From Naegleria gruberi (lineage: Eukaryota), in NCBI GenBank assembly GCA_000004985.1, contig GG738878.1: DNA of 64,000 nucleotides. One strand, 5' to 3'. Position numbers and translations under genes: made by a program. The notes beneath the pieces were generated by a model that was given only the letters and a program-made list of their open reading frames with translations, was not told the origin of the DNA and made no database searches. The stretch's first letter is position 1. Every line of letters starts with the position of its first letter. This document shows positions 777-57,774 of the stretch, one piece after another.

Positions 777-3700
777 TTATTCTTGTGGTTTTGGAGTTGT
801 GTTGGCTGGTTGAGCAACTCTAGGTTTTGGGAATCCAGTTATTTCGTAAAGTTTTTCGACTGATGGTTTAACGATGGCAGCTCCTTCTAACCATGGAGTA
901 CCACATAAAATATCCAGAACAGCATCTAATTGTTCATCGGTCATAACCATGTCACCACAAACTTGCAAAGCTCCATATAATTGATTGGCAGCATATTCAC
1001 GAACCTTTGGGAACTTGCTTAATAAACAAGAGGTAAAGAGTCTTTGGAAGGCCTTTTCTCTTGTTGGATTACTGTACTTGATCAATTCACAGAATAAATC
1101 GACTGCAAGCATAATCTTTTGAACATTCTTACATGTTCCAACAATTTCCTTGGTTGTAGCAACGATGAGCTTTTCAGTGTAATCATATTGAGGAGGTTGG
1201 AATCTTTCAAATACACCATGACCAATGAGAAGAGCGTAAGATTTGAGTAATGGAACAATCACTCTATCGTCCAAAGCATATTGTACTCCAATTTCAAGCA
1301 TTACTGTCAAGATCTTCTCTGACATATCGTCACTGGTTTTCAAATAATCAATCAAGGCTGTAGTACTATGTTTGAAAACATGGCTAGACATACCACCCAT
1401 ACTAACAACAAGTCCACTCAACAAGCTATATCTATAAATTTCCAAAGGAAGAAGTTTGACGAAAATAGGGAATGATTTTTCAGCAGAAGACCAATCAACC
1501 AAGCTTCCATCATCACTGCTATGAATTATTTGGGAAATTTCTTCTCTCAATGGAATATTCTTAGAATGTTCATTTGCAAGAATACGAACAATAGATCTAC
1601 ATGCATTATCTCTTACTCTATCTATTTTTTCTACAGCTTGCTTTAAGAGTGAACACATCAATGAGGTGGCCATTTCTACAGTAAATAATGGAGTTGGTGA
1701 GACGAGAGTGAACCATCTTTCCAAAGAGGCCATAGAAGCCTCTCTTACCCATGAACCAACATCACCTCTCTTGTCGACAGCATAATCGTTTGTTCCCTTA
1801 ATAAGAGCATCGAATATCTTGCTTGCATTTTGTTCAGTGACTCCATTTTCGCACAAACCAATATTTTCAGAAAGTGAAATAATACCATAAATTGCATTTC
1901 TACGAGCATCAGCATCTTGAAGATCAATATCTTGCTCCAATTCAAGTTTGCTAATAAGCACATCAATAGCTTGATTGAAGTAATTTTGCATGATTTGTTT
2001 TGGTAAAACTCCCAAAGCAAGTGCAAGTCCTCTTCTTGTTGCTGGATTGATATCTGTATTAAGTTGATGAATGTACTTTTTGGCAACCTCTTCTCCAAAT
2101 TCAGGACTGGTATGATAATATTCGTGAGAGAAGGACTTGAGTGAGGCCACTGCCATTTCAATAATTTCATTATTAGGATGTTTCAAGTTTTCATCAATGG
2201 TTTCTTGGAAAATGGTCAAAGACTTCTTCTTCAATTGTCTATTACCAACAGAAGAAGCTACAGTCATGGTGGCTGGAAGAGTAACATGACTCAAAGCCAT
2301 ACATTCAATAAATCTAGAGACGGCTTCTCTCATAATTTCACCTCCTTTACCTCTGTACAATCTCTTGGCTTCAATGTTTGGAACAATATTTCTGAGCTTA
2401 TCTTGCAAATCTTCGTCAAAGGTTACGCCCAAATTGGTGAGAGCAAGGATTACCTCAGCCAATGCAAATAAACTACCATGTCTTGCATTCAAATCTGTTT
2501 CGACACATCTATCAATCAACTTTGGAATGATTGATTCTTGAATGAATTTAGCATCCCTATCACAGAGTTTGGCCAATGTTCTTGAGGCAAGTTCTCTGAT
2601 TGACTTTTCCCAGTGAGTTACCTTTGAGTCAACCAAATATGAAATCAATGATTGACAATATTCTGGATATTGAGCAATATAGTAACTGATAGAGAGGTAA
2701 GAGTTATTTCTATTACACAATGAGAAATAGTCAGCAACTGTAATAATGTCAATACCGTGAGGGAAGCTTCCTTGTCTACCAACATTTTCTTGGAAAGCAG
2801 CAGCGGCAGCTCTTCTACAGTTAACTTCTCTGTCATAGACGGCAATCTTGACAAGTCCTTGAGAGAGATTGTTCATGTAAGGTTTGATAATTTCTGGAGC
2901 ATAAGCTCTAGCAAAAGCCCAACAAACATAACAGGCAGCATCTCTTACATGAGCACCAACACTGTGAGTTCCCTTTCTGACATCATAAATGAGAGCTTGT
3001 TCAAGCAATGGAATTACTTGTTGTAATCTTTCTGGGAGAAGAAGGCCTCTTCTAGCAAGTTCAGCAAGAGCCAAAGAAGCACCATGCCAAGAACTATCAT
3101 CCTCATTTGCATTCATCAATTCACAAACTGATTCTACAATTTGATCACCAAGGTATTTTGGAAGTCTCAGAGTCACTCTACCAACACCCTTAGCAGCACT
3201 CCATCTTACGATTGTATCCTTATCTCTGAGGCCATTAATTAATTGTGAGATGATTTGCTCAACTTCTTCATTGATTTCAATATCTTCATCATCTTCCATT
3301 TCGTTGGAAGAGTTTGATTGAGATGTTTGTTTTTTCAAGTGCATTAATGTGAGTCTTGTTGTGTGATATCTCCATGCTACAACTCTTGGTTTAAGATGAG
3401 TCAAGCCAATTCTTTGAATGAGTTTCATGTTCAAGTGTCTGAGCATTGTATTGTTATTATCAGTCTCTGCTGTAACATTTGCCCAAATAAGTGGAATAAT
3501 ATCTAACAATTCATCTCTCTTACCAATCTTGAAAATCATGACAATTGTACGCATGATACCAGCTCTCTAAAATTCAATTATTAGAAAAATGAAAATCTCA
3601 TAAACATACCAAAAATGTAGTTGTCTTTGGTCCTGAAATAGTTTCAATTCCCCATTTAATAAACTCTGGTAATTTTTCCTTAGCCATATCTGGTCTAGTT

Positions 3701-34980: not shown

Positions 34981-36269
34981 TTACCACCAAGGAACGAATC
35001 GGAAGGGTTCATTAAGGATCTTTTCATTTCTGAAGGAGTATAACTTGGATAATTCTTGTTGGGGGTAGACTGTGATTGGATTTAAATCATTGGTACTAGT
35101 TGAAGTGGAGTTTTTGCTTTCCAATTTCTTGAGATTTTCCTTGGCATCAGTTTGTAATTGTGAGAGCATGTCTTCTTTTCTGTAGAAGCGTTCATAGCAC
35201 CATTCATTGAATTGTTTCTCATCATGATGTGGAACGGTGTTGATTGGAATCTTTTTGATATTGACACAAATCTTGGTTCCTTTCAGACGTTTCATCAATA
35301 ATTCAGGAGCTCCCAAAACAGGGAATGCCTTATTGACGATTGAGGAAGCAACTTTCTTGTCATTCACTGCCTCTTTTCTACACGATTCAATGTATTCCCT
35401 AGTTGGTGGATATCCAATTGTCACGTCATAAATATATTTAATTCCATTGTCCTTTTCCACAGATAGATCAATATTTGCATTTTCCTGCTGAGTGGTAATT
35501 GCCTTAATCATCATTCCAAGTCCTTTCACTCTTGGAAGGACAACTTGATTTAATTCCCTCAATTTTCTCTCTCTGGCAAATTCATTTGATTTGGTAATAT
35601 TATTTTGGGTGATACGTGTTCCTTCAGGGAAAATCAAGACATAGCTTGGAATATTATCCTTCATTACAGAATTCACTGAATCTGCAATAGATTGTTGGTC
35701 TTTTTGCCAATTTCTATCCAAAACAATTTGTTTTCCTTTAATAATATCAAATAATAATACATTCCAATAATTATTTTCACATATCCACAAATCAATCCAA
35801 ATAAGTAATAATAATAGTAAAATAGGAAAATGAATTCAAACTCACCTAAAATTAACCCAGGAAAACCAAGGAATGGAATGATGAGTAAATCCTTCTTTGC
35901 CAAGAATTTCAAAAATCCCAACAATCCCTTTCTATAGGCAATACATGCCAACACTAGGAAATCAACATTACTCACATGATTACACATGACAAGTGCACTC
36001 TCCTTCTCTTTAATTTCATCTCCTGAAAATTCCAACTCACAACCAGCATAAACCTCTATGAAAAAGACAAACCAATAGAAACCCAATCCACTCACGCTCA
36101 AATTCAATACCTTGATGAATCTGGCAATTCTTGGATGTACTCTTCCGATAGTGTGGAGTAACAGCCAACAAGTAATTTGTGGAATGTTAATTGCCATGAA
36201 AATGTACAGCAGAAAAACAATTACCAACAGTGCAGACAGTACAGCACTGATAATCTTTTGCAATTTCAT
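34981..36269 (-). CDS. Lysophospholipid acyltransferase (AGPAT/LPLAT family), 2 exons (36269..~35846 and ~35735..34981)
   Basis: N-terminal TM, HxxxxD motif (NHVSNVDF), FPEGTR motif; intron G|GTGAGT...ATTAAAG (~35736..35845) in phase 1. Confidence 0.7.
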
Positions 36270-45507: not shown

Positions 45508-45786
45508 TGTATTTGTTGATATAATTTTTTTTAAAAACTAACTGGTTATATTTAGTAGGTAGTTTTTATTCGAAAGTTCATAACCATAGAACAATGAACT
45601 TCAAGTTACAATTCAATTAATTTCTCAGTTTTCAAAACATCAAATGTTATTTCAATTTTGGTCGCATCTAAACGAAACCCAGAACGAAATTCGAAATTCT
45701 ATTGAGAGAATAAATAAATATTAAAAAATTCAACAATAGTTTCAGATAACAACAATTTGAATTTATCCTTTAGTATTTGAATTGAT

Positions 45787-47121
45787 TTATCCTGAAGCAC
45801 CCTTCAAACCACTTTCCAAATGATCAGCTTCACGATTTCTTCTAGTAGAATATTTATCACCAAAGTTTCTCAAATTATTAACCATTCCCTTATAATCATT
45901 CTTAGTCAATTGACCAAAAAATCCAGGAGTGGCCTTCTTAATACTTCCATATTGATGTTGGACACTGTAAGCAACTGATTGGACAGATGATGGCAAATCC
46001 TTGAAATTCTTGACAGCATTTGGATTTTTGGCAGCAGCTGCTTCATAATCTTTGGCCAAGGAGGCAAGTGACTTGTCCATAACTGCCTTATCAATGGCTT
46101 TAGCTTCAGCAGGTGATAGGGATAATGGATTCTTTGATAGGAAATTCTTGGCAGCTTGTTGTTTCAAACCAGTATATGGAGAAAGTTTATCGACTAAACT
46201 AGGTGAAAGTCCAAGAGATTTCAAACCCTTAACATTTTGTTGTCCAATATCGAAACCAGTACCAACAGTAACACCTGATTTACCAACGACAGTACCTGAC
46301 TTGGATTGTGGAACGTAACCCTTAGTAGAGAATGCTTCATTCTTAGTAAGTAAACCCTTATCAATCTTGTAACCAGAAACAGTTGCAACAGAAGCAGCAG
46401 CAGGTTGTTGAGCTAGAGCTCTATTTTTGACAGATGTTTGAATGGCAGCAGCTGTCAACTTTCCAGTGACTGCAGGTTGAGCAGCAAAAGCAGCATTAAA
46501 ACGAGCAGTTAATGAATTGACACGTGGACCCTTAACATTCACAGCAGCAGCCTTAGCCATAGCAGAGAATGCCTTTGCCATATTTGGACCAACTAATCCA
46601 GTAAATGCCTTACTCAATGTAGGACTAACTTTTGAGAATTTACTGGTAATTGAGTTGGCTAATTTGGAAAGAGAAGCACGAGCTTGAGCTGCTTTGAGAC
46701 CTGCAGTACGAGTTCTACCTGCCATTCTACCTGCAAGACCCTTATTTGATTTGGTTGATTTGGAAGATGGTCCAGATCGTCCAGTTTTACCTGATGATCT
46801 ACCATTGGATTTACCACCACTGGATCTTCCATTGGATCTACCTGATCTACCTGATCTACCTGATTGACCACTGGATCTTCCACCTCTGGAACCTCCTCTG
46901 CTACCAGAGCTACCTCCACGGCTACCACCACCTCTGGAACCACCAGAACCTCCACGACCACCACCAGAACCACCGCCACCGCCACCGCCACTGGAACCAC
47001 CCTTGTAAGAATCTGCCAATTCGACAATTTCTGCCAAGAAGGAAGAGGATGCGGAAACTGCAATGATGGACACGGAAAGAATGGCCAAACAACACAAGAT
47101 TGTGAATGAGAGTTTCTTCAT
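45787..47121 (-). CDS. Secreted protein: signal peptide + Gly/Ser/Arg-rich linker + Ala-rich region + C-terminal phage-type (GH24, T4/P22-like) lysozyme-like domain; paralog of 56377..57678
   Basis: MKKLSFTILCCLAILSVSIIAVSA signal; (G/S/R)n linker. C-terminal segments KIDKGLLTKNEAFSTKGYV...VTVGTGFDIGQ, VQSVAYSVQHQYGS...FFGQL and LRNFGDKYSTRRNREADHLESG parallel the T4L/P22 gp19 N-terminal lobe, Q-x-DAL-x-S-x-x-FN-x-G and C-terminal RRxRE motifs. Confidence 0.6.
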   Translation of the reverse strand: MKKLSFTILCCLAILSVSIIAVSASSSFLAEIVELADSYKGGSSGGGGGGGSGGGRGGSGGSRGGGSRGGSSGSRGGSRGGRSSGQSGRSGRSGRSNGRSSGGKSNGRSSGKTGRSGPSSKSTKSNKGLAGRMAGRTRTAGLKAAQARASLSKLANSITSKFSKVSPTLSKAFTGLVGPNMAKAFSAMAKAAAVNVKGPRVNSLTARFNAAFAAQPAVTGKLTAAAIQTSVKNRALAQQPAAASVATVSGYKIDKGLLTKNEAFSTKGYVPQSKSGTVVGKSGVTVGTGFDIGQQNVKGLKSLGLSPSLVDKLSPYTGLKQQAAKNFLSKNPLSLSPAEAKAIDKAVMDKSLASLAKDYEAAAAKNPNAVKNFKDLPSSVQSVAYSVQHQYGSIKKATPGFFGQLTKNDYKGMVNNLRNFGDKYSTRRNREADHLESGLKGASG

Positions 47122-47941: not shown

Positions 47942-48931
47942 ATGTCATCATCACTATTCGAAACCTCATCTGAAATGAAACATTCTTCCACTTTCCAACA
48001 AGAAGATTCCCAACACAACAACATGTACTATCTAAACAATACCTCAAAGACAATCCAAGAAGAACAACCTGAGGTTTTCAAATATTGGAAACATGTCAAG
48101 ATTCTTCTCAAGAACATTTTTATCCTAATCTACTTTTTCTCATCGAGTTTAATAACAAAAATTGTTACCATGTACATGGCCATTCCAAATGTTAAGATTT
48201 CTCAAGCACCTGCTCACGACATTCTTCTTTCCAACTTGACGAAACCTATTCGAATCGCCTTTACTTTATCAGAAACTATCACTGGCTTACTCGTTGTTAT
48301 TCTCATCACCTTGTCAATATTTAACAAAACTCATCGATTCTCCATCATGAGTAGGTTGCTATTCATCGTGGCGAGTATCATGAATTTGAGAGCTGTTTGT
48401 ATTGCTGTTACAACTTTCAGCGTTCCAACAATCGAATATTTGCAAACTTGTGGTCAATTGCAATCGTTGAAACCAGACGAAAGGTTTGTGAGGGCTGTTA
48501 ATATTTTTGGGTTTAGTGGAGGAGAAACGTGTGGAGATTATGTTTTTTCAGGGCATGCAACTTCGTTGAGTGTGGTTTGTTGGTTTGTTTGGTATTATTC
48601 GAATAAGGAATGGGTTGGAAGAATCTGGACGAATCTCTTGCTGATTATTTTGCATATTGTTGGATGTTTGGGAATATTGTTGGCCAAAGAACATTACACA
48701 GTTGATGTTTTACTTGCTTGCACTATTTCTCTTCTGGTTTGTCAATTGTATCATTCGTATTTGAAAGTTGCTTCGCTTGAACCACATTCGAAAGGTTTAT
48801 TCTTTTCAGTAATGGAATTTGACTTGAGTGAAGAAACTGAAAATGTGTTCGACAGCTCGATATTTGGTTATCTTTACGAAAAAATTGATGGAAACAAAAC
48901 TAATTTCGATCTAATCTCAGACAATGTATAA
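47942..48931 (+). CDS. Sphingomyelin-synthase family (SMS/SMSr-like phosphotransferase) membrane protein
   Basis: CGDYVFSGHATSLSVV and HYTVDVLLACTISLLVCQLYH motifs (SMS D3/D4) within a 6-TM core. Confidence 0.7.
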   Translation: MSSSLFETSSEMKHSSTFQQEDSQHNNMYYLNNTSKTIQEEQPEVFKYWKHVKILLKNIFILIYFFSSSLITKIVTMYMAIPNVKISQAPAHDILLSNLTKPIRIAFTLSETITGLLVVILITLSIFNKTHRFSIMSRLLFIVASIMNLRAVCIAVTTFSVPTIEYLQTCGQLQSLKPDERFVRAVNIFGFSGGETCGDYVFSGHATSLSVVCWFVWYYSNKEWVGRIWTNLLLIILHIVGCLGILLAKEHYTVDVLLACTISLLVCQLYHSYLKVASLEPHSKGLFFSVMEFDLSEETENVFDSSIFGYLYEKIDGNKTNFDLISDNV

Positions 48932-48970: not shown

Positions 48971-51702
48971 TTAAACTTTCACCTCATCAAGCTCTTGATT
49001 CTTTGCAATTGAAGATGATTTCACATTCGCATACGAAAAATCTGATTTCTGCGTAACTTTCAAATAAACTTCTTCCAAAGTTGTTTGAGAAATTCCCCAA
49101 TCTTTAATTCCTAAAGTTGAATTTTCCAAATCTGAGATTAAATCCGATAATTCTGCAAGTTGCTGCTTGGGAATGTTAAAGATAAAGTTTCCAGCACTTT
49201 CGCTTACAATATTTACATTCGAAATTCGAGAGTTGACCATTGAAATAACATGTTGCTCGTGTCCAGTGTTGGCCACAACCATGAGATTGTAACCACTTCC
49301 ATATTGGGCTTTGATTGAAAGTGAATTTCCAACACATTTCAGTTGACCATGAGCCATGATAGCAATCTTGTCAGATAAATAATCGGCTTCGTCCATGGCA
49401 TGTGTGGTAAGAATCATGGCTCTTCCTTCTTTCATTTTGTGAATTAAATTCCATGCTTTCTTTCTTGAATATGGATCCTAATGAGGTGAATAAAGAAAAC
49501 TAAAGTTGTGAATAAACTTACCAAACCAGTGGTTGGCTCATCTAAGAGAACCAACTTTGGATTACCAATACAAGCAATACAAATGGATAATCTTCTCTTC
49601 ATACCACCTGAATAAGTCTTTGTCAAGTGATGGCCAACTTTTGACAAGTCAACCGATTCCAAAAAGTTGCTAACTTGTTCAGTTCTTTGTTTTCTTGGAA
49701 CTCCTTTCAAATCTCCAAACAATTCCAAATGCTCCTCAGCTGTCAAATCGTCCCACAAAATATCATGTTGTGGACACATTCCCAATTGCTTTCGAATATC
49801 TTCCATCGAATCTCTCACATTCAATCCAGCAATGAAAGCTTCACCAGATGATTGCTGGAACAGCCCAGTCAAAATATTCATTGTGGTTGATTTACCAGCT
49901 CCATTATGGCCCAACAAACTAACACATTGATTATCTTGCACAATTAAATTCAAACCTTTGAGAGCTTTCTTCTCAGAGAAGAATTTTCTAAATTTGGCGG
50001 GAAGAATTTTCAAAGCAATTTTGGCCAAGAATGAAGAAAATGTTCTTCTCAGTGAGATGATTCTGACAATGGCATTCTGATTGAAATCACGTGCCTTGGA
50101 AAACTCATTCTTTATATCTTGAGTTTCCATTTGATGCATATCAGTTTCGTCATTTGCATCAAGTTTCGACTTGGATTTCCATCTATTAATTCCCCAATAC
50201 GAAGGATATAAGAAGAAAATTGGTGACTTTCTAACACCATTTCCATCAGAAATTACATTATCACAATACCAATACAAGACGAGAAACAATAACCCATTAA
50301 GGAAAAGTGTTAAAATTCCCAACCACGAACCAGGAACATAATCGTAAGTGTTCTTTCCAATAAATAAATCTTCGATTGTGTAACCTGGACCAGTAACGTA
50401 CTTTCTTTGTGTGGAATCGTAAACTGGCAATGCTTTTACAGCAATGTCAATGAAAACCTTGGCAAAGTTGAAAGGTGGATAGAAGGAGAAGATTACAACT
50501 ATGAGAGGAGTGATGGAAGAGGAATAGAGCATGTAGACAATGTTACTATTCGAAACTGTCAAGTTCAAAATCTGAATCATGTTAATTTGAATGTGATGTT
50601 AATGAATAGTACTTACAAAGGAAATTGCCAAAACTGTAAATCCCAAAACTAGAGCAGATTTCGATTCCTTGATAAAAGTTGATAATAGGAAAGCTAAACA
50701 AATCAAGGAAAATGTGAAACTAAAGAATAATACATAAAGAACAATAAAGTCAGTATTCAAAAAGATTGAAATTTGAAAGATCATGCCACCAATCACATTG
50801 ACCAATGAGAAAACGGCACAGATAATCAAGAATGTAATGAACCATGATAGGAAATAGGCAGATTCTTTCATTCCCATCATAATCATGGCAAATCTTAGAC
50901 GAAACTCCTTCTCAACAACCAAACTATTCAATGAAATAATCAAGACAATCATGGCTCCAATACTAAAGAAGGTTGGTCCTGAATAATTGTACAATAAAAC
51001 TTCTCCATTCTTACTTTGAGGAGGTTGTGGAAAACTCTTAAAGTCAACCTGAATTGAATTTCTAGAATCAGCAAGTTCTTGAGTTCTGCCCAAATCTTTC
51101 ATTCTCAAATAAACAATGTTATTGTCAATTAGATTTTGTAAGGAGAGGAGTGGAGTTTTCAAATCCTCTCTAGTTCTATTATAGTACATGGTATATGAAA
51201 TGGTATCAATGGTATCTAGTGGACCATTTGGAATGAATGAAATACCAAACATGGTTTGATTTTGATGAGTGTACATCCAATTTTCCATCTCACTTTTGGT
51301 TGTAAACATTTTGTAATCAGTGTCTTGTTTCAAATTGTAATCAGAAATTAACAATTCCATTACCTTCTCTCCAAATGAAATACCATTAGCAGAATAAACT
51401 AATTTGTAACAAGCTCTTCCACCATTCGGTTTGCATTCGTAAAATTTTAAAGCAATTCCATTGTCATACGATTGTTGAGTTGGCACTTGAATTCCCTTAT
51501 GAATTAGCTCAATTGGCTGATGAATTGCACTCTCACCTGAAAAGTTAGCTTGCAAAACCTCCTTCATGACCACCAAAATCACCAAAATAATAATGGGAGA
51601 CAGCAATTGCATTCCAGTAGATTTCCATCTTCTTGTATAGAGCAGGAAATTCTTCTTTAACAAAATGAGCGTTTGTTTCAACACCTCCAACAGATAATTC
51701 AT
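48971..51702 (-). CDS. Half-size ABCA-type ABC transporter (TMD-NBD), at least 3 exons: 51702..50617, 50571..49522, 49477..48971
   Basis: ABCA-style N-terminus (NYLLEVLKQTLILLKKNFLLYTRRWK) with TM1 then a large extracellular loop; Walker A GHNGAGKST, signature YSGGMKRRLS, LLDEPTTGL|DP split by a 44-nt GTAAGT intron; second intron GTAAGT...ATTCAG (50572..50616). Confidence 0.75.
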
Positions 51703-52004
51703 AATAATAGTATTGAACAAGAAAGTGTTGTTGAGACTTTTTTCTAATTGAGAGAGGAAGCATATGTTTCATTGGCACACGATTTTGAATGAGCTGTGAT
51801 TCGTAGGTGCGAACTTGTGGCAGTTAGCTGAGCTGTAAATTAGTTGGAGGTGAGAAGATCCTCCTTTTCAAACAATGTTAGAGAACGGAGAGTGCGATTG
51901 GAAGAGTCTGTTTGAACTTGTTGATAAGGGAGAAGCGAATTTGTTATTATTGTTTTTCATTAATCATTAAAAAACAAAAGTAAATCTCCAACCAATTAGA
52001 TCAT
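51703..52004. promoter_or_regulatory. Divergent shared promoter between the two half-ABCA genes
   Basis: ~300-bp spacer between head-to-head starts. Confidence 0.45.
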
Positions 52005-55000
52005 ATGAAAGAAACAAAGATTTTGGATGAGAATAGTGGTGGTGCTACTGCTACTACTACTGGCCAATCAGTGACAACTCCCATCGATTGTGATGATTTG
52101 TTAATGAAGAGTCGTGCTGGTAAGGAGTTGAATCAAGTGAGAGCATTGTTGTACAAATCATTGATGTTGCAAATGAAGCAATACAAGTAGGTTATTTCAT
52201 TGTTAATATTAGTATTCATGTATATTGTATTTTGTTCAACAAATACAGGTCAAATATTTGTCAATTGATATTCCCAGTCATTTGTTTAATGTTCATTTAC
52301 GTTTTACAAATAGTTGCAAATAGATTGATTGCAGGATTCTTTACAGGCAATGAGGGAGCTGCAGCAGTTGTTAGAATCAACTCTACATCTGTTGAACTTT
52401 CTCAACTCATGTATCAAGCAAAGATGCAAGCTCAAAACTTGACATTTAATCCTCCAGAGTCCCTCTTTTTCACCTCTGATAAGAATGACTATTTGAATAG
52501 TATTGGATTTGGTACCATGTCCTCTAATCAGTCTGGATCTAGTGGTTTCTTGGCTAATTTTTCTCCATGGTCCAGAAGTTCAGTCATGATGTTAGTGAAT
52601 GGTACCTTTGATGAGAAGGGAATGATTTCAATTCCATACTCTGTAACCTCTGCTTTTGGTAATGAAAGTACTATGGATGAAGTCATCTATGATAGAATGG
52701 GTGCTGTGGGAAAACTGAAAACTTGGATGCTGTTGGTGCCTATATTGTAAGAAAGTTGGACACCTCTGGTATCAATTACACTGTACAATTTGATTACCAT
52801 GAAAAGACTCAATTCTTTGCTGAATTCCTCTCAAAATCACCACTCACCTATATTGTTACAAGTGCTAGAGATGCTATTAGTGTTTCTCTTCAGAATTGGA
52901 TGAATGATGCCTTCCTGAAAAATCTTACTGGCTCTTTCAGAATTAGAACCTATACAGCTCAAATGACCTATGATACTCAATTAATTTCCTTCAGACTTTC
53001 TGACATGTTAGGTTCCTTCTTCTTTCCACTAATTCTTTCTCTATTATTACCAACATTTACCTTTACCATTGTTATGGAGAAGCAATACAAGTTGAGAGAA
53101 ATGATGAAATTGATGGGTATGAAGATGAGATATTACTTTTTGGTAACTTATGTATTTTTCTATGCAATGTATGCCCTCTCTGCTATTTTGTTCATCATCT
53201 TTTCTATTGCCTTTGATTTTAGATTTATAACCCAGACACATCCATTAATGTTAAGTAAGTATTCATTGCTTTTTCACATATATTTAACCAGGATACTTTA
53301 GTTTTCTTCTTCCTGTTGTGGGGAAATGTATTGATTAGTTTTTCATTCCTATTATCTTCGTTCATTGGTAAGACAATTGTAGCTACTATTGTTTCCTACT
53401 TGTTTGTTCTGATTGGACCAATGGTTGGTGTCCTTCTTGAACAAGCTCTCTATCCAAGTGCACCAGATGCAAGATATGGTCTCCTCTTATTGTTCCCTCT
53501 CCAAATTACTCACTTTGTCTTTGCTGCAACCAATTCATGTAATAACAATGCATGTTTGACAGATGTGGCTGATATTGTAAATAATGTATCTGTCCTCAGC
53601 TCACTTCTTTACATGTTGGGAGTTTCAGTGTTGTACTTCATATTGGGTCTGTACTTTGATGCCATTATTCCACAAACATTTGGTATAAGTAAACATCCAT
53701 TGTTCTTCCTGGAGTGGATGTGGAGGCCGTGTATTAAACGTCGTCTGAAGAGAGCTAAAAAGCACACTGAAAGTAAGAATCAAGTCCAACCATTTGGAGA
53801 TGAAGAAGGTGCTATTGATTACAATACCTCCGAAGTAATGGACAGTGATGTAGCTGAGGAGTTTAACAAGGTTAATCCAAGTAATATCACAGACAATGAA
53901 ATGCAAGAGCATGCTAGAAAATTGAAGGAAGAGCATGGTGTTGTCCTTTTCAATTTGGAAAAGAGTTTTGGAGGTAATAAGGCTGTTAAAGGTACCTGTC
54001 TCACTATTGGCAAATCTGAATGCTTTGGTTTGCTAGGTCTTAATGGAGCTGGTAAATCAACAACCATCTCAATGTTAGCAGGAATGTTTGGTCCAAGTTC
54101 TGGAACTGCATTTGTGTGCGGTAAAGATATTAGATATGACATGGACAGTATCCATCAAGTAATGGGCTTGACAGCACAATTTGATATTTTGTATCCTGAT
54201 TTGAGTTGTGAAGACCATTTACTCTTCTATTCCAGAATGAAGGGTGTGAAAATCAAGCACGAGAAGGAACACGTCCAATCTCTATTAAAACAAGTAGGTC
54301 TAGATAATGAAACTCTCAAAGTGAGATTCTCTCCAGCATCCAGCTCACTTTCAGGAGGTATGAAGAGAAGATTATCCATTGCCATTTCACTAATTGGTGA
54401 TCCGAAAGTAATCCTACTCGATGAGCCAACCACTGGACTGGATCCACTCTCCAAGAGACACTTGTGGGATATCATTCTCGCTCAAAAGAAGAATAGAACT
54501 GTCATTTTGACCACTCACTCCATGGAAGAAGCTGATGCCTTATGTGATCGAATGACCATCATGGTAAAAGGTTCTTTCAAATGCTTAGGTTCTGGTTTAA
54601 GATTGAAAAACAAGTTCGGAGATGGCTATTTGATGACCATCAGTTACCAACCAGAGAACCAAAACATTGCCGAGAAGTATGTCTACGATTACGTACCAGA
54701 GGCTGTGAAGGATCTGACTCTGAGTGGCATAACCATCTTCAAAATACCTCACCTTAATGCTCCTCATTCTCATCAAATAACAACAACAACAACAACAAAT
54801 CAAAACAGCAGCATAAGCCATAATAATAATAGTAGTGGGGAAAAGAATAGAACATTGGCTGGTTTGTTTAAACATATGGAAAGTGGAAAGGATCATCACG
54901 GAATTGAAGAGTGGGCTTTAAATCAAGTTTCATTAGAACAAGTCTTTTTGAATATAATTTCGAGTGATGCAAAGAGAAATCCATTGAAGGATGAATCCAA

Positions 55001-55043
55001 GTGGAAGCGATTAGCAACCATGTTCAAGCAATGTATCCATTGA
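52005..55043 (+). CDS. Half-size ABCA-type ABC transporter (TMD-NBD), at least 4 exons: 52005..52186, 52249..~52720, ~52723..53270, 53316..55043
   Basis: Intron 1 GTAGGT...ATACAG (52187..52248); TM1 then a large extracellular loop; Walker A LGLNGAGKST, signature LSGGMKRRLS, Walker B ILLDEPTTGLD; GTAAGT intron ~53271..53315; one junction near 52723 changes frame and is unresolved. Confidence 0.7.
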
Positions 55044-55305: not shown

Positions 55306-56136
55306 ATGAAGCAAACCTTTTTCATTTTGGTTGTTGCTTTGATATTAGCCTTCGTAGGAGGTTTGGTCAGCGCCGATGTGATCGATCACACCAATAGAAT
55401 TCTCCCAGCGACTACTCCATATCATATGGGTATTTTACATACTTTTGATCCATTTACTTCATCATGGTCCTTTTATTGTAATAGACCAGGTGCCGGACCT
55501 GGAACAAACGATCAATTGGGTATTGTTGTTAATATGGGAAGTGATATTAGAATAATTGGTCCTAAAGTGTATAATGATGATAGTAATTTCCAAGTTGGTA
55601 TTCAAGGGGGAGAGACTGGCAAGATTATTGATTTGGGTACTGAAGATGATGTCAGCAAAACTTATGGTTGTTCAAACTGTTTTACTGGTATTAAATTTAG
55701 TAGTGATGGAGTTGTTTCAGTTTTAGATAAGACAAAGAATTTGAAGCCAATTGACCTTACTGCCATGACAGTGGATCATGCTTCAATTAAAGTAGGTCAT
55801 ATTTACTTGGTCAAGATTAGCAATGGAAATGATGATACTGCTCTTTTTGTAAAGTTTATTGCTACCTCAGTTCTTTATGGAGCAAACAATGCTGTGGAAA
55901 CTGTAACAATGAGACATCAACCAATGTATGTTAAAATTTCACAATCAACTGGAAGAGATTGCTCAGGTCATGTAGATCTTAATTCTGTTGTGGCTCAAGC
56001 TGAAACTGGAATTAGTTTGGCTGTTATTGGATTGGTGGCTACCATTTTCATTGGTGTTGGAAATGTTGCCTTCTTAATTTATTATTTTGCATTTGCAAAG
56101 GGAAAGAGAGGTGGTGTTTATGGAACTCTCCAATAA
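55306..56136 (+). CDS. Signal-peptide protein with C-terminal TM anchor, unknown function
   Basis: MKQTFFILVVALILAFVGGLVSA signal; C-terminal hydrophobic ISLAVIGLVATIFIGVGNVAFLIYYFAFA. Confidence 0.5.
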   Translation: MKQTFFILVVALILAFVGGLVSADVIDHTNRILPATTPYHMGILHTFDPFTSSWSFYCNRPGAGPGTNDQLGIVVNMGSDIRIIGPKVYNDDSNFQVGIQGGETGKIIDLGTEDDVSKTYGCSNCFTGIKFSSDGVVSVLDKTKNLKPIDLTAMTVDHASIKVGHIYLVKISNGNDDTALFVKFIATSVLYGANNAVETVTMRHQPMYVKISQSTGRDCSGHVDLNSVVAQAETGISLAVIGLVATIFIGVGNVAFLIYYFAFAKGKRGGVYGTLQ

Positions 56137-56376: not shown

Positions 56377-57678
56377 ATGAAAACATCTCTCTTGGTTTTA
56401 TGCACCTTGATGGTACTCTGTGTATCCATTATGGCTGTGTCTGGCTCCTTCTTGGAACAAATTGTGGAAATGTCACTTTCTGATTCTAGAAGTTTCAAGT
56501 CGGGTGGTGGTAGCTCTGGAGGAGGTAGCAAATCTGGAAGCAGTAGCAGCAGCTCTGGAAAGTCATCCAGTAAGTCATCCTCATCCTCCAGTAAGAGTAC
56601 TAGCTCTAGTAAAACCTCCACTTCAAAGAGTTATAGCAAGTCAACTGTCTCATCAAAGATGGCCTCAGCTTATTCTCAATATGCTAACAGTAGAATTGCT
56701 GGTATGAAGAATCCAGCCAGCACCATGGCTGGTCTCAAAGCTGCCAATTTGAATGCTCGTTTAAGTGCTCAACCAACTGCTACTGTCAATGGTAAATTGA
56801 CTGCTGCTGGTATCAAGGCCTCTTATCAAAATCGATTGAATACAAGAGTTGCTGCTGCCTATCAACAATATGCTCAATCCAGAATGGCTGCTGCCAAACC
56901 AACTGCTAAGCCAACCAATATTGCTGCAGCTTATCAACAATACGCCCAATCTAGAATTGCTGGTATGAAGAATCCTGCTAGCACTTTGTCTAAACCAACT
57001 GCCAAACCTGCCAATATTGCTGCTGCCTATCAACAATATGCTCAGTCCAGAATTGCTGGTTTGAAGAATCCTGCCAGTACTCTCCCAGGTAGTTTCAAGA
57101 TTGATAAGGGTTTGCTTACTGTTAATGAAGGTAAACCTGCCACTACTGGTTACGTTCCACAATCCAAGGCAGGTACTGTCATTGGTAAATCAGGTGTTAC
57201 TGTTGGTACTGGATTCGATGTTGGTCAACAAAATGTTAAGGGTTTGAAAGCTCTTGGACTTTCACCAAGTTTAGTCGACAAGCTTTCTCCATACACTGGA
57301 TTGAAGCAACAAGCAGCTAAGGACTTTTTGGCTAAGAATCCATTGTCCCTATCGCCTGCTGAAGTTGCATCCATTGATAAGGCAGTTATGGACAAGTTTT
57401 CTGCCAATTTGGCCAAAGATTATGCAGCTGCTGCTGCCAAGAATCCAACTGCTGTCAAGAATTTCAAGGATTTGCCAGCTCCTGTCCAATCAGTTGCTTA
57501 CAGTGTCTACCATCAATATGGAAGCTTCTCCAAGACTCCAAGCTTCATGAACAAGTTGGCCACCAATGATTACAATGGAATGGTTCATGAATTGAGAAAC
57601 TTTGGTGATTCTTACTCAACAAGAAGAAATCGTGAAGCTGATCATTTGGAAAGTGGTTTGAAGGCTGCTTCAGGATAA
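56377..57678 (+). CDS. Secreted protein: signal peptide + Gly/Ser-rich linker + AAYQQYAQSRIAGMKNPAST repeats + C-terminal GH24 phage-type lysozyme-like domain; paralog of 45787..47121
   Basis: MKTSLLVLCTLMVLCVSIMAVSG signal; C-terminal ~200 aa about 80% identical to the paralog (…STRRNREADHLESGLKAASG). Confidence 0.6.
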   Translation: MKTSLLVLCTLMVLCVSIMAVSGSFLEQIVEMSLSDSRSFKSGGGSSGGGSKSGSSSSSSGKSSSKSSSSSSKSTSSSKTSTSKSYSKSTVSSKMASAYSQYANSRIAGMKNPASTMAGLKAANLNARLSAQPTATVNGKLTAAGIKASYQNRLNTRVAAAYQQYAQSRMAAAKPTAKPTNIAAAYQQYAQSRIAGMKNPASTLSKPTAKPANIAAAYQQYAQSRIAGLKNPASTLPGSFKIDKGLLTVNEGKPATTGYVPQSKAGTVIGKSGVTVGTGFDVGQQNVKGLKALGLSPSLVDKLSPYTGLKQQAAKDFLAKNPLSLSPAEVASIDKAVMDKFSANLAKDYAAAAAKNPTAVKNFKDLPAPVQSVAYSVYHQYGSFSKTPSFMNKLATNDYNGMVHELRNFGDSYSTRRNREADHLESGLKAASG

Positions 57679-57774
57679 ATAAATTCTAATGTTGTTGCCA
57701 TCTCTGAACATACTGGAATATTGTCTCAAGTTTTGAATGCCTAGATTATATATTTGAGAATTATCTTGGAATAG

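Follow-up and report, generated by a model that had tools for sequence, protein, structure and literature searches.

A head-to-head pair of half-size ABCA genes in Naegleria gruberi as candidate subunits of a heterodimeric transporter

The window analysed here, a stretch of 64,000 nucleotides from contig GG738878.1 of the heterolobosean amoeba Naegleria gruberi (assembly GCA_000004985.1), contains two divergently oriented genes, designated A (48971..51702, minus strand) and B (52005..55043, plus strand). Both clearly encode half-size ABCA-type ATP-binding cassette (ABC) transporters in which a transmembrane domain (TMD) precedes a nucleotide-binding domain (NBD), an assignment made by sequence for both products and by predicted fold for A. 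Comparison with homologous proteins leads us to propose, with a probability of roughly 0.6, that A and B are different subunits that together make up a single heterodimeric ABC transporter of ABCA type (type V). The proposal draws on conservation of the gene pair, on phylogenetic trees of A and B that mirror each other, and on the existence elsewhere of proteins in which A-type and B-type modules are fused.

In the proposed arrangement, A would supply the “N-half” module, consisting of the first transmembrane segment (TM1), exoplasmic domain 1, TMD1, NBD1 and a regulatory domain, and B would supply the “C-half” module. Divergent transcription from a shared 302-bp spacer may serve to match the dosage of the two proteins, which would assemble 1:1 in the membrane into the equivalent of a full-size ABCA, their NBDs forming two composite ATP sites that are both predicted to be catalytically competent. 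ATP binding and hydrolysis would then power the movement of a lipid-like substrate, by translocation or extrusion, in the manner of ABCA1, ABCA3, ABCA4 and ABCA7. It is by analogy with these four established transporters that we infer the A-B complex, the co-expression of the genes, and the membrane, substrate and direction of transport.

ABCA identity and domain architecture

The domain order of the two products is the same: an ABC2_membrane_3 domain at residues 31-463 of A and 64-497 of B is followed by an ABC_tran domain at residues 566-710 and 611-757, respectively (Pfam). When the products were compared with PDB sequences using phmmer, the 13 best distinct sequences for A and for B were ABCA3, ABCA4, ABCA1 and ABCA7, with top E-values of 5e-142 (A) and 1e-124 (B); the next family was ABCB for A (1e-46) and the bacterial ABC ATPase 4yer for B (1e-42). 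Evidence from predicted structure concerns gene A only. An AlphaFold2 model of this protein (mean predicted local distance difference test score of 74) returned human ABCA structures as all of its 22 best Foldseek matches, and it contains a mixed alpha/beta domain at residues 99-223 as well as a beta-alpha-beta-beta-alpha-beta regulatory-type unit at residues 775-855, after the NBD. Alignment with human ABCA3 reaches residue 860 of A and residue 931 of B, and for B the regulatory (ACT-like) domain is assigned by this alignment only.

Hydropathy analysis places TM1 at residues 32-50 of A and 64-82 of B, with the next hydrophobic segment at about residue 240 and about residue 311, respectively, leaving exoplasmic loops of about 190 amino acids in A and about 230 in B. 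The Walker A, Q-loop, signature, Walker B (with its catalytic Glu) and H-loop motifs are canonical in A, in B and in all 16 A- and B-clade sequences examined. Here the two halves are not joined in one polypeptide; the genes lie on opposite strands with facing start codons.

A preliminary description of this DNA, made from the letters alone, had placed a pair of half-size ABCA genes of TMD-NBD type at 48971-55043, and the Pfam, PDB and (for A) Foldseek results bear this out with the coordinates exact. Its further statements that TM1 is followed by a large extracellular loop, and that the genes diverge from a spacer at 51703..52004 (the start codons are 302 bp apart), also hold. The signature LSGGMKRRLS that it assigned to the pair is exact in B, whereas A reads YSGGMKRRLS. 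Its framing of the find against the ABCAs of opisthokonts was off target, the source being a heterolobosean.

Evidence for and against a two-subunit transporter

The head-to-head arrangement recurs outside N. gruberi. Willaertia magna shows it too, with P0003 (A-type, minus strand) and P0035 (B-type, plus strand) diverging from a 296-bp spacer. On a metagenome contig (L088, with a twin, L089), a B-type gene (P0075, whose product is 36% identical to B) and an A-type gene (45% identity with A across 640 amino acids) are likewise head to head, their start codons about 100-270 bp apart. Because the same arrangement is found in both W. magna and L088, the pairing of A and B is more than chance. This linkage is the only synteny observed: no flanking gene is common to the window and the loci of Willaertia, N. 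fowleri and N. lovaniensis, and when the open reading frames (ORFs) of the window (at least 80 amino acids, from position 36000 onward) were compared with these loci (L001-L005, a set that leaves out L088), only the ABCA genes were matched. The spacers of N. gruberi and Willaertia have no alignable sequence conservation. Within the N. gruberi spacer, which presumably holds a bidirectional promoter and both 5' untranslated regions, a promoter scan of bacterial type gave matches at chance level only, and a search for repeats and motifs returned nothing notable, only short repeats of doubtful meaning. A separate scan of metagenomes with the B-clade alignment was uninformative, its pattern DEPTTGLD drawing bacterial ABC ATPases at 31-42% identity.

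The relationship of A to B is an old one. The two proteins are 29% identical and fall into separate clades with 100% support, which identifies them as old paralogs and not as a recent tandem duplicate; between their exoplasmic domains BLAST detects no similarity. At the DNA level, two segments of the genes form inverted repeats with 73-77% nucleotide identity, one at the signature and Walker B motifs (49521-49612/54350-54441) and one at Walker A (49859-49928/54019-54088), as expected from motif conservation in proteins that are 29% identical overall.

Clade A includes one sequence each from N. fowleri and N. lovaniensis, two from W. magna, and metagenomic relatives, and clade B includes the same species together with Pharyngomonas kirbyi and Percolomonas cosmopolitus. 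N. gruberi itself has a second A gene (A2, P0239; partial, 74% identical to A on shared columns) and a second B gene (B2, P0037; partial). In neighbor-joining (NJ) trees with limited taxon sampling and with bootstrap values scored on unrooted splits, the A sequences are arranged as (A1 of the window, (A2 of N. gruberi, (N. fowleri, N. lovaniensis))), with 86% and 90% bootstrap, and the B sequences as (B1 of the window, (B2, (N. fowleri, N. lovaniensis))), with 100% and 99%. This common shape indicates that both A and B were duplicated before N. gruberi and N. fowleri separated. The ratios of A to B copies recovered by word-indexed searches, which are able to miss genes, were 2:2 in N. gruberi, 1:1 in N. 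fowleri, 1:1 in N. lovaniensis and 2:2 in Willaertia. Copies of A1 and B1 were found by these searches in neither N. fowleri nor N. lovaniensis, and the pathogen N. fowleri carries the family as A2 and B2.

A fused full-size version, for which the preliminary description had proposed to look in relatives, does exist, with an A-type N-half and a B-type C-half. In an exhaustive HMMER search with a profile of clade B, the heterolobosean B proteins were immediately followed in rank by many full-size ABCAs, in which the C-half gave the best match, at times along its entire length with the exoplasmic domain included. The halves of 10 fused proteins were scored against hidden Markov models (HMMs) of both clades: the N-halves favoured the A-clade model, by a margin of 80 to 299 bits, and the C-halves the B-clade model, by 8 to 184 bits. 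When 54 half-sequences were placed in an NJ tree (688 columns, 200 replicates), clade B grouped with the fused C-halves and three further half-size proteins (96% bootstrap), and clade A with the fused N-halves and an Amborella protein of the ATH group (92%), leaving animal- and foram-type ABCA halves in clades of their own, apart from both supergroups. The fused proteins include Thecamonas trahens XP_013757381.1 (P0079), a Cavostelium apophysatum transcript (P0074) and P0069-P0073, and among their sources are an MMETSP transcript and uninterrupted ORFs on environmental contigs. Since they are seen in transcripts and in uninterrupted environmental ORFs, they are not merged gene models. By the gene-fusion (Rosetta stone) argument, the joining of A-type and B-type modules in one chain suggests that A and B are the two parts of one machine.

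The polarity of this relationship can be read in two ways. In the NJ tree the heterolobosean clades are placed among the fused halves with weak deep support, and on this basis we lean toward a secondary fission, for example by inverted duplication and complementary loss. It is doubtful, in our estimation, that the pair of Naegleria, Willaertia and L088 is instead the surviving unfused state of the half-transporters whose “heterofusion” made full-size eukaryotic ABCAs, kept as a divergent heterodimer since before Discoba and Amorphea separated.

Several observations weigh against a heterodimer. In N. fowleri and N. lovaniensis, A and B are located on different contigs, and a second B paralog stands unpaired on an N. 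gruberi-like contig, so that linkage of the two genes is dispensable. No partner gene lies within the short flanks of the B2-like contig L006 or of the A-like contig L007. The canonical ATPase motifs of both clades make homodimers catalytically possible, and with neither ATP site degenerate the asymmetry of many ABC heterodimers is absent. Both A and B align slightly better with the N-half of human ABCA3; ABCA3 alone was for this reason rejected as a test of whether A corresponds to the N-half and B to the C-half. The relation of B to C-halves emerged only with full-size proteins of the Thecamonas/Cavostelium type and is limited to this subset of full-size ABCAs. To these points can be added the limited taxa of the NJ trees, copy counts that may miss genes, and a 1-nt frame break in gene B between 52711 and 52724, which is discussed below.

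Some of these observations could reflect a situation in which A and B form independent homodimers with different substrates or in different membranes, their adjacency being a relic of inverted duplication or of neighbour retention. Complete canonical motifs in both NBDs, the unlinked A and B genes of N. fowleri and N. lovaniensis together with the unlinked B2 paralog, and exoplasmic domains that differ beyond detection by BLAST would all fit such a situation, and half-size ABCAs are generally assumed to be capable of forming homo- or heterodimers (PMC2984421, PMC3378599). Nevertheless, we regard independent homodimers as somewhat unlikely. Three divergent genomes preserve the adjacency, the orientation and the size of the spacer, and of the two other pairs the one compared for its flanks, that of Willaertia, has no flanking gene in common with the window. 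Moreover, the A and B trees agree in duplication and in apparent loss, and many other eukaryotes have proteins in which a B-type module is fused behind an A-type one. The preliminary description had gone further than we do in reading the arrangement as one expected for obligate, co-regulated heterodimer partners: a co-regulated partnership gains strong though indirect backing from the pair in three genomes, the matching trees and the fusions, but “obligate” stays conjectural, given the unlinked genes of N. fowleri and N. lovaniensis and the lack of a degenerate site.

A true A-B heterodimer would mean that an ABCA occurs in naturally split form in heterolobosean amoebae, with one half per polypeptide and one short promoter for both. 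The halves of human ABCA1, ABCA3, ABCA4 and ABCA7 are covalently joined, so that the contribution of each half is hard to address, and the Naegleria pair would offer a tractable system for this question. The pair is also relevant to the proposal in the literature that full-size ABCAs arose by “heterofusion” (PMC2984421, PMC4649718). Should it represent the state before fusion, it would amount to a naturally occurring ABCA of two chains, whose N- and C-half roles could be separated genetically. What is known of the mechanism of ABC transporters is unchanged by it.

Gene structures, the frame break in gene B and the surrounding genes

Gene A (48971..51702, minus strand) has 3 exons encoding 880 amino acids, with its ATG at 51702 and its stop codon at 48971-48973. 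Exon 1 (50617..51702) contains the start codon, TM1 (51612..51556), the exoplasmic domain of ~190 amino acids and most of the TMD. After intron 1 (50572..50616; 45 nt, GTAAGT..CAG), exon 2 (49521..50571) encodes the last part of the TMD and the greater part of the NBD, up to the start of Walker B, including Walker A (49911..49885), the Q-loop (49782..49762) and the signature YSGGMKRRLS (49614..49585). Intron 2 (49477..49520; 44 nt, GTAAGT..TAG) sits after the residues EPTTGL, and exon 3 (48971..49476) encodes the D-loop, the H-loop (49414..49385) and the C-terminal regulatory-type domain, ending with the stop codon. The N-terminus MNYLLEVLKQ matches MNYFLEVVKQ of N. fowleri, and removal of intron 1 joins VLAISF to ILNLTVSN, colinear with ..VLAISFILNLFVSN.. 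of N. fowleri. Two environmental ORFs match gene A, one nearly identical to exon 1 (P0243) and one related to exon 2 (P0241); both enter introns where gene A does, P0241 at the position of intron 2.

The exact product of gene A was not present in the protein collection searched, protein searches returned no N. gruberi match above 70% identity, and the two genes flanking it carry consecutive GenBank accessions (EFC42635 and EFC42636). On these grounds, gene A seems to have been left unannotated among the public proteins of N. gruberi.

Gene B (52005..55043, plus strand) likewise has 3 exons and encodes about 976 amino acids, with its ATG at 52005 and its stop codon at 55041-55043. Exon 1 (52005..52186) comprises the start codon, shared with the GenBank model EFC42636.1, and a hydrophilic N-terminus. 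It is followed by intron 1 (52187..52248; 62 nt, GTAGGT..CAG) and by exon 2 (52249..53254), which encodes TM1 (52256..52315), the exoplasmic domain of ~230 amino acids and the first part of the TMD, and which contains the frame break. Beyond intron 2 (53255..53301; 47 nt, GTAAGT..TAG), exon 3 (53302..55043) encodes the remaining TMD, the NBD and the C-terminal domain up to the stop codon, with Walker A at 54036..54062, the Q-loop at 54165..54185, the signature LSGGMKRRLS at 54348..54377, Walker B at 54408..54443 and the H-loop at 54504..54533. At the first junction MKQYK is joined to SNICQLIFPV, colinear with ..FRQYKTNLCQLLFPV.. of N. lovaniensis, and the second, ..THPLML-I-FFFLLWGNVLISF, is colinear with ..TNPLILFIFFVCWGSTLVSF of the same species. 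Overall, the four introns of A and B are 44-62 nt long and start with GTAAGT or GTAGGT, in keeping with a window that is AT-rich (about 32-39% GC) and whose spliceosomal introns are very short, and the exon junctions of both genes run colinearly through residues conserved in their Naegleria and Willaertia homologues.

The product of gene B is 98% identical to the N. gruberi predicted protein EFC42636.1 (P0032, NAEGRDRAFT_69485). Gene B has an apparent 1-nt deletion at 52711..52724, within two runs of four A residues (GGGAAAACTGAAAAC). Here the frame-1 reading ..MGAVGK resumes in frame 3 as TENLDAVGAYIV, while homologues read MGAVGK-PERMN-AVGAYI across the site; in a DNA alignment N. lovaniensis, N. 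fowleri and Willaertia have one extra base at this point. Frame 1 terminates at 52748-52750. The model EFC42636.1 avoids the break by splicing out 22 conserved residues, and we rejected its intron for that reason, as we did a 50-nt GTGGGA..AAAG intron that would bridge the break at the cost of the homologue-conserved VGK..AVGAYIVRK. The public model of gene B is thus wrong at the frame break. Homopolymer runs of this kind are typical sites of assembly errors, and the break is most simply read as such an error in an A4 run.

Two other explanations were considered. The break could be real and gene B a recently inactivated pseudogene, with A acting alone or with the unlinked paralog B2 (P0037). 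In accord with this, gene B is one base short of all homologues at 52711-52724 and runs into the stop at 52748-52750, the public model escapes only by losing its 22 conserved residues, and N. fowleri and N. lovaniensis apparently manage with A2 and B2 only. We nonetheless consider inactivation very unlikely, given that the other 2.3 kb of the frame are uninterrupted in a genome of 35% GC, that every catalytic motif and both intron junctions are intact, and that the break falls within homopolymer runs typical of assembly errors. Alternatively, the ribosome could cross the break by programmed -1 frameshifting at an in-frame G_GGA_AAA: the heptamer GGGAAAA at 52708-52714 fits X_XXY_YYZ in the zero frame, and a -1 slip would yield ..GAVGK-TENLDAVGAY.., with the length and pattern of the homologues. 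This seems extremely improbable, as folding of the 86 nt that follow is no stronger than in shuffled sequence (z = -0.30), the homologues require no such event, and a deletion in a run of this type mimics the heptamer in one of three frames. Assembly error remains our preferred reading of the break. Protein-based surveys would miss the pair, since gene A was not found among the public proteins and gene B is wrongly modelled there.

A sphingomyelin-synthase-like gene (47942-48931, plus strand) lies convergent with gene A, the two stop codons being 39 bp apart. It is intronless, matches PAP2_C (PF14360, E = 4.9e-22) and is identical to EFC42635.1. From its presence the preliminary description had surmised a lipid-handling module, a suggestion that found no support: the gene is neither beside the Willaertia pair nor beside the unpaired A and B genes of N. 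fowleri and N. lovaniensis, and is thus conserved in no related locus tested. On L088, a Lipase_3 (PF01764) gene (1907-3229, minus strand) is located directly downstream of the A-type gene; this second lipid-metabolism gene downstream of A belongs to a different family and is a curiosity, not a module.

The ABCA pair is bracketed by two Pesticin-domain paralogs, at 45787-47121 (minus strand) and 56377-57678 (plus strand). Their C-terminal Pesticin domains (PF16754, a phage-lysozyme-like bacterial toxin domain) match with E-values of 1e-70 and 7e-69, and with a hydrophobic N-terminus and a Gly/Ser-rich region both proteins look secreted. They are 65% identical as proteins and 87-88% identical as DNA over 45775-46326 / 57142-57690, forming an inverted repeat about 10.8 kb apart that could mediate inversion of the segment between. 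A 276-amino-acid ORF (55306-56136, plus strand) between gene B and the right-hand Pesticin gene has a hydrophobic N-terminus and a C-terminal hydrophobic segment, and had no match in Pfam.

Comparison with known systems

Split ABCA pairs are already known in protists; what is new here is the conservation of a pair across genera, the parallel duplication and loss of its members, and the fusion evidence relating A to N-halves and B to C-halves. A literature search for Naegleria ABCA genes and for the locus tags of these loci found no paper. Half-size ABCAs, which the preliminary description treated as best known from plants, are not a plant speciality: they have been described in Tetrahymena, Paramecium and Dictyostelium as well as Arabidopsis (PMC2984421), in Trichomonas (PMC3378599) and more widely across eukaryotes (PMC4649718).

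The closest parallel, judged by published description, is found in Trichomonas vaginalis. Of its 34 ABCA genes nearly all are half-size, and 20 are linked as ten inverted pairs (Kay et al. 2012, PMC3378599); the paired genes sort into two groups paralleling the N- and C-terminal NBD clusters of full-size ABCAs (PMC3378599). The Trichomonas and Naegleria pairs thus have in common half-size ABCAs of TMD-NBD type, a big loop between the first two transmembrane segments (200-500 amino acids in Trichomonas), an inverted linked arrangement, and membership in two clades that parallel N- and C-halves. They differ in that one member of each Trichomonas pair has a degenerate signature or Walker motif, whereas both Naegleria proteins are canonical, and in that the ten Trichomonas pairs come from a recent expansion, whereas the Naegleria pair is a single one conserved across genera.

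In gene arrangement, a counterpart is provided by ABCG5/ABCG8, obligate partners encoded head to head 374 bp apart (PMC6824678), compared with 302 bp for A and B. These genes share a bidirectional promoter and encode an obligate heterodimeric sterol pump of the same type V fold class as A/B. Unlike A and B, ABCG proteins have the reverse NBD-TMD order and one degenerate ATP site, and they are without a large exoplasmic domain. Experiments have established the heterodimer of ABCG5/ABCG8, whereas that of A/B is inferred.

Plant half-size ABCAs (ATH; Arabidopsis ABCA2-12; Amborella P0007) share the TMD-NBD architecture of A and B. The Amborella protein, the one plant sequence in our tree, is 32% identical to A and falls within the supergroup of clade A and N-halves (92%), although not as sister to clade A; to clade B the plant proteins show general ABCA similarity only, B lying outside their supergroup. 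We know of no obligatory partner gene or divergent pairing for plant half-size ABCAs.

The fused ABCAs of Thecamonas and Cavostelium are composed of the same two modules as Naegleria A and B, joined in one polypeptide in the order A then B, whereas the Naegleria modules are separate genes on opposite strands that simple read-through cannot join. Human ABCA1, ABCA3, ABCA4 and ABCA7, the best matches by sequence (A and B) and by fold (A), share with the pair a type V TMD, an exoplasmic domain after TM1, and an NBD followed by a regulatory domain; in contrast to A and B, they are full-size, with both halves on a single chain, and their exoplasmic domains are much larger.

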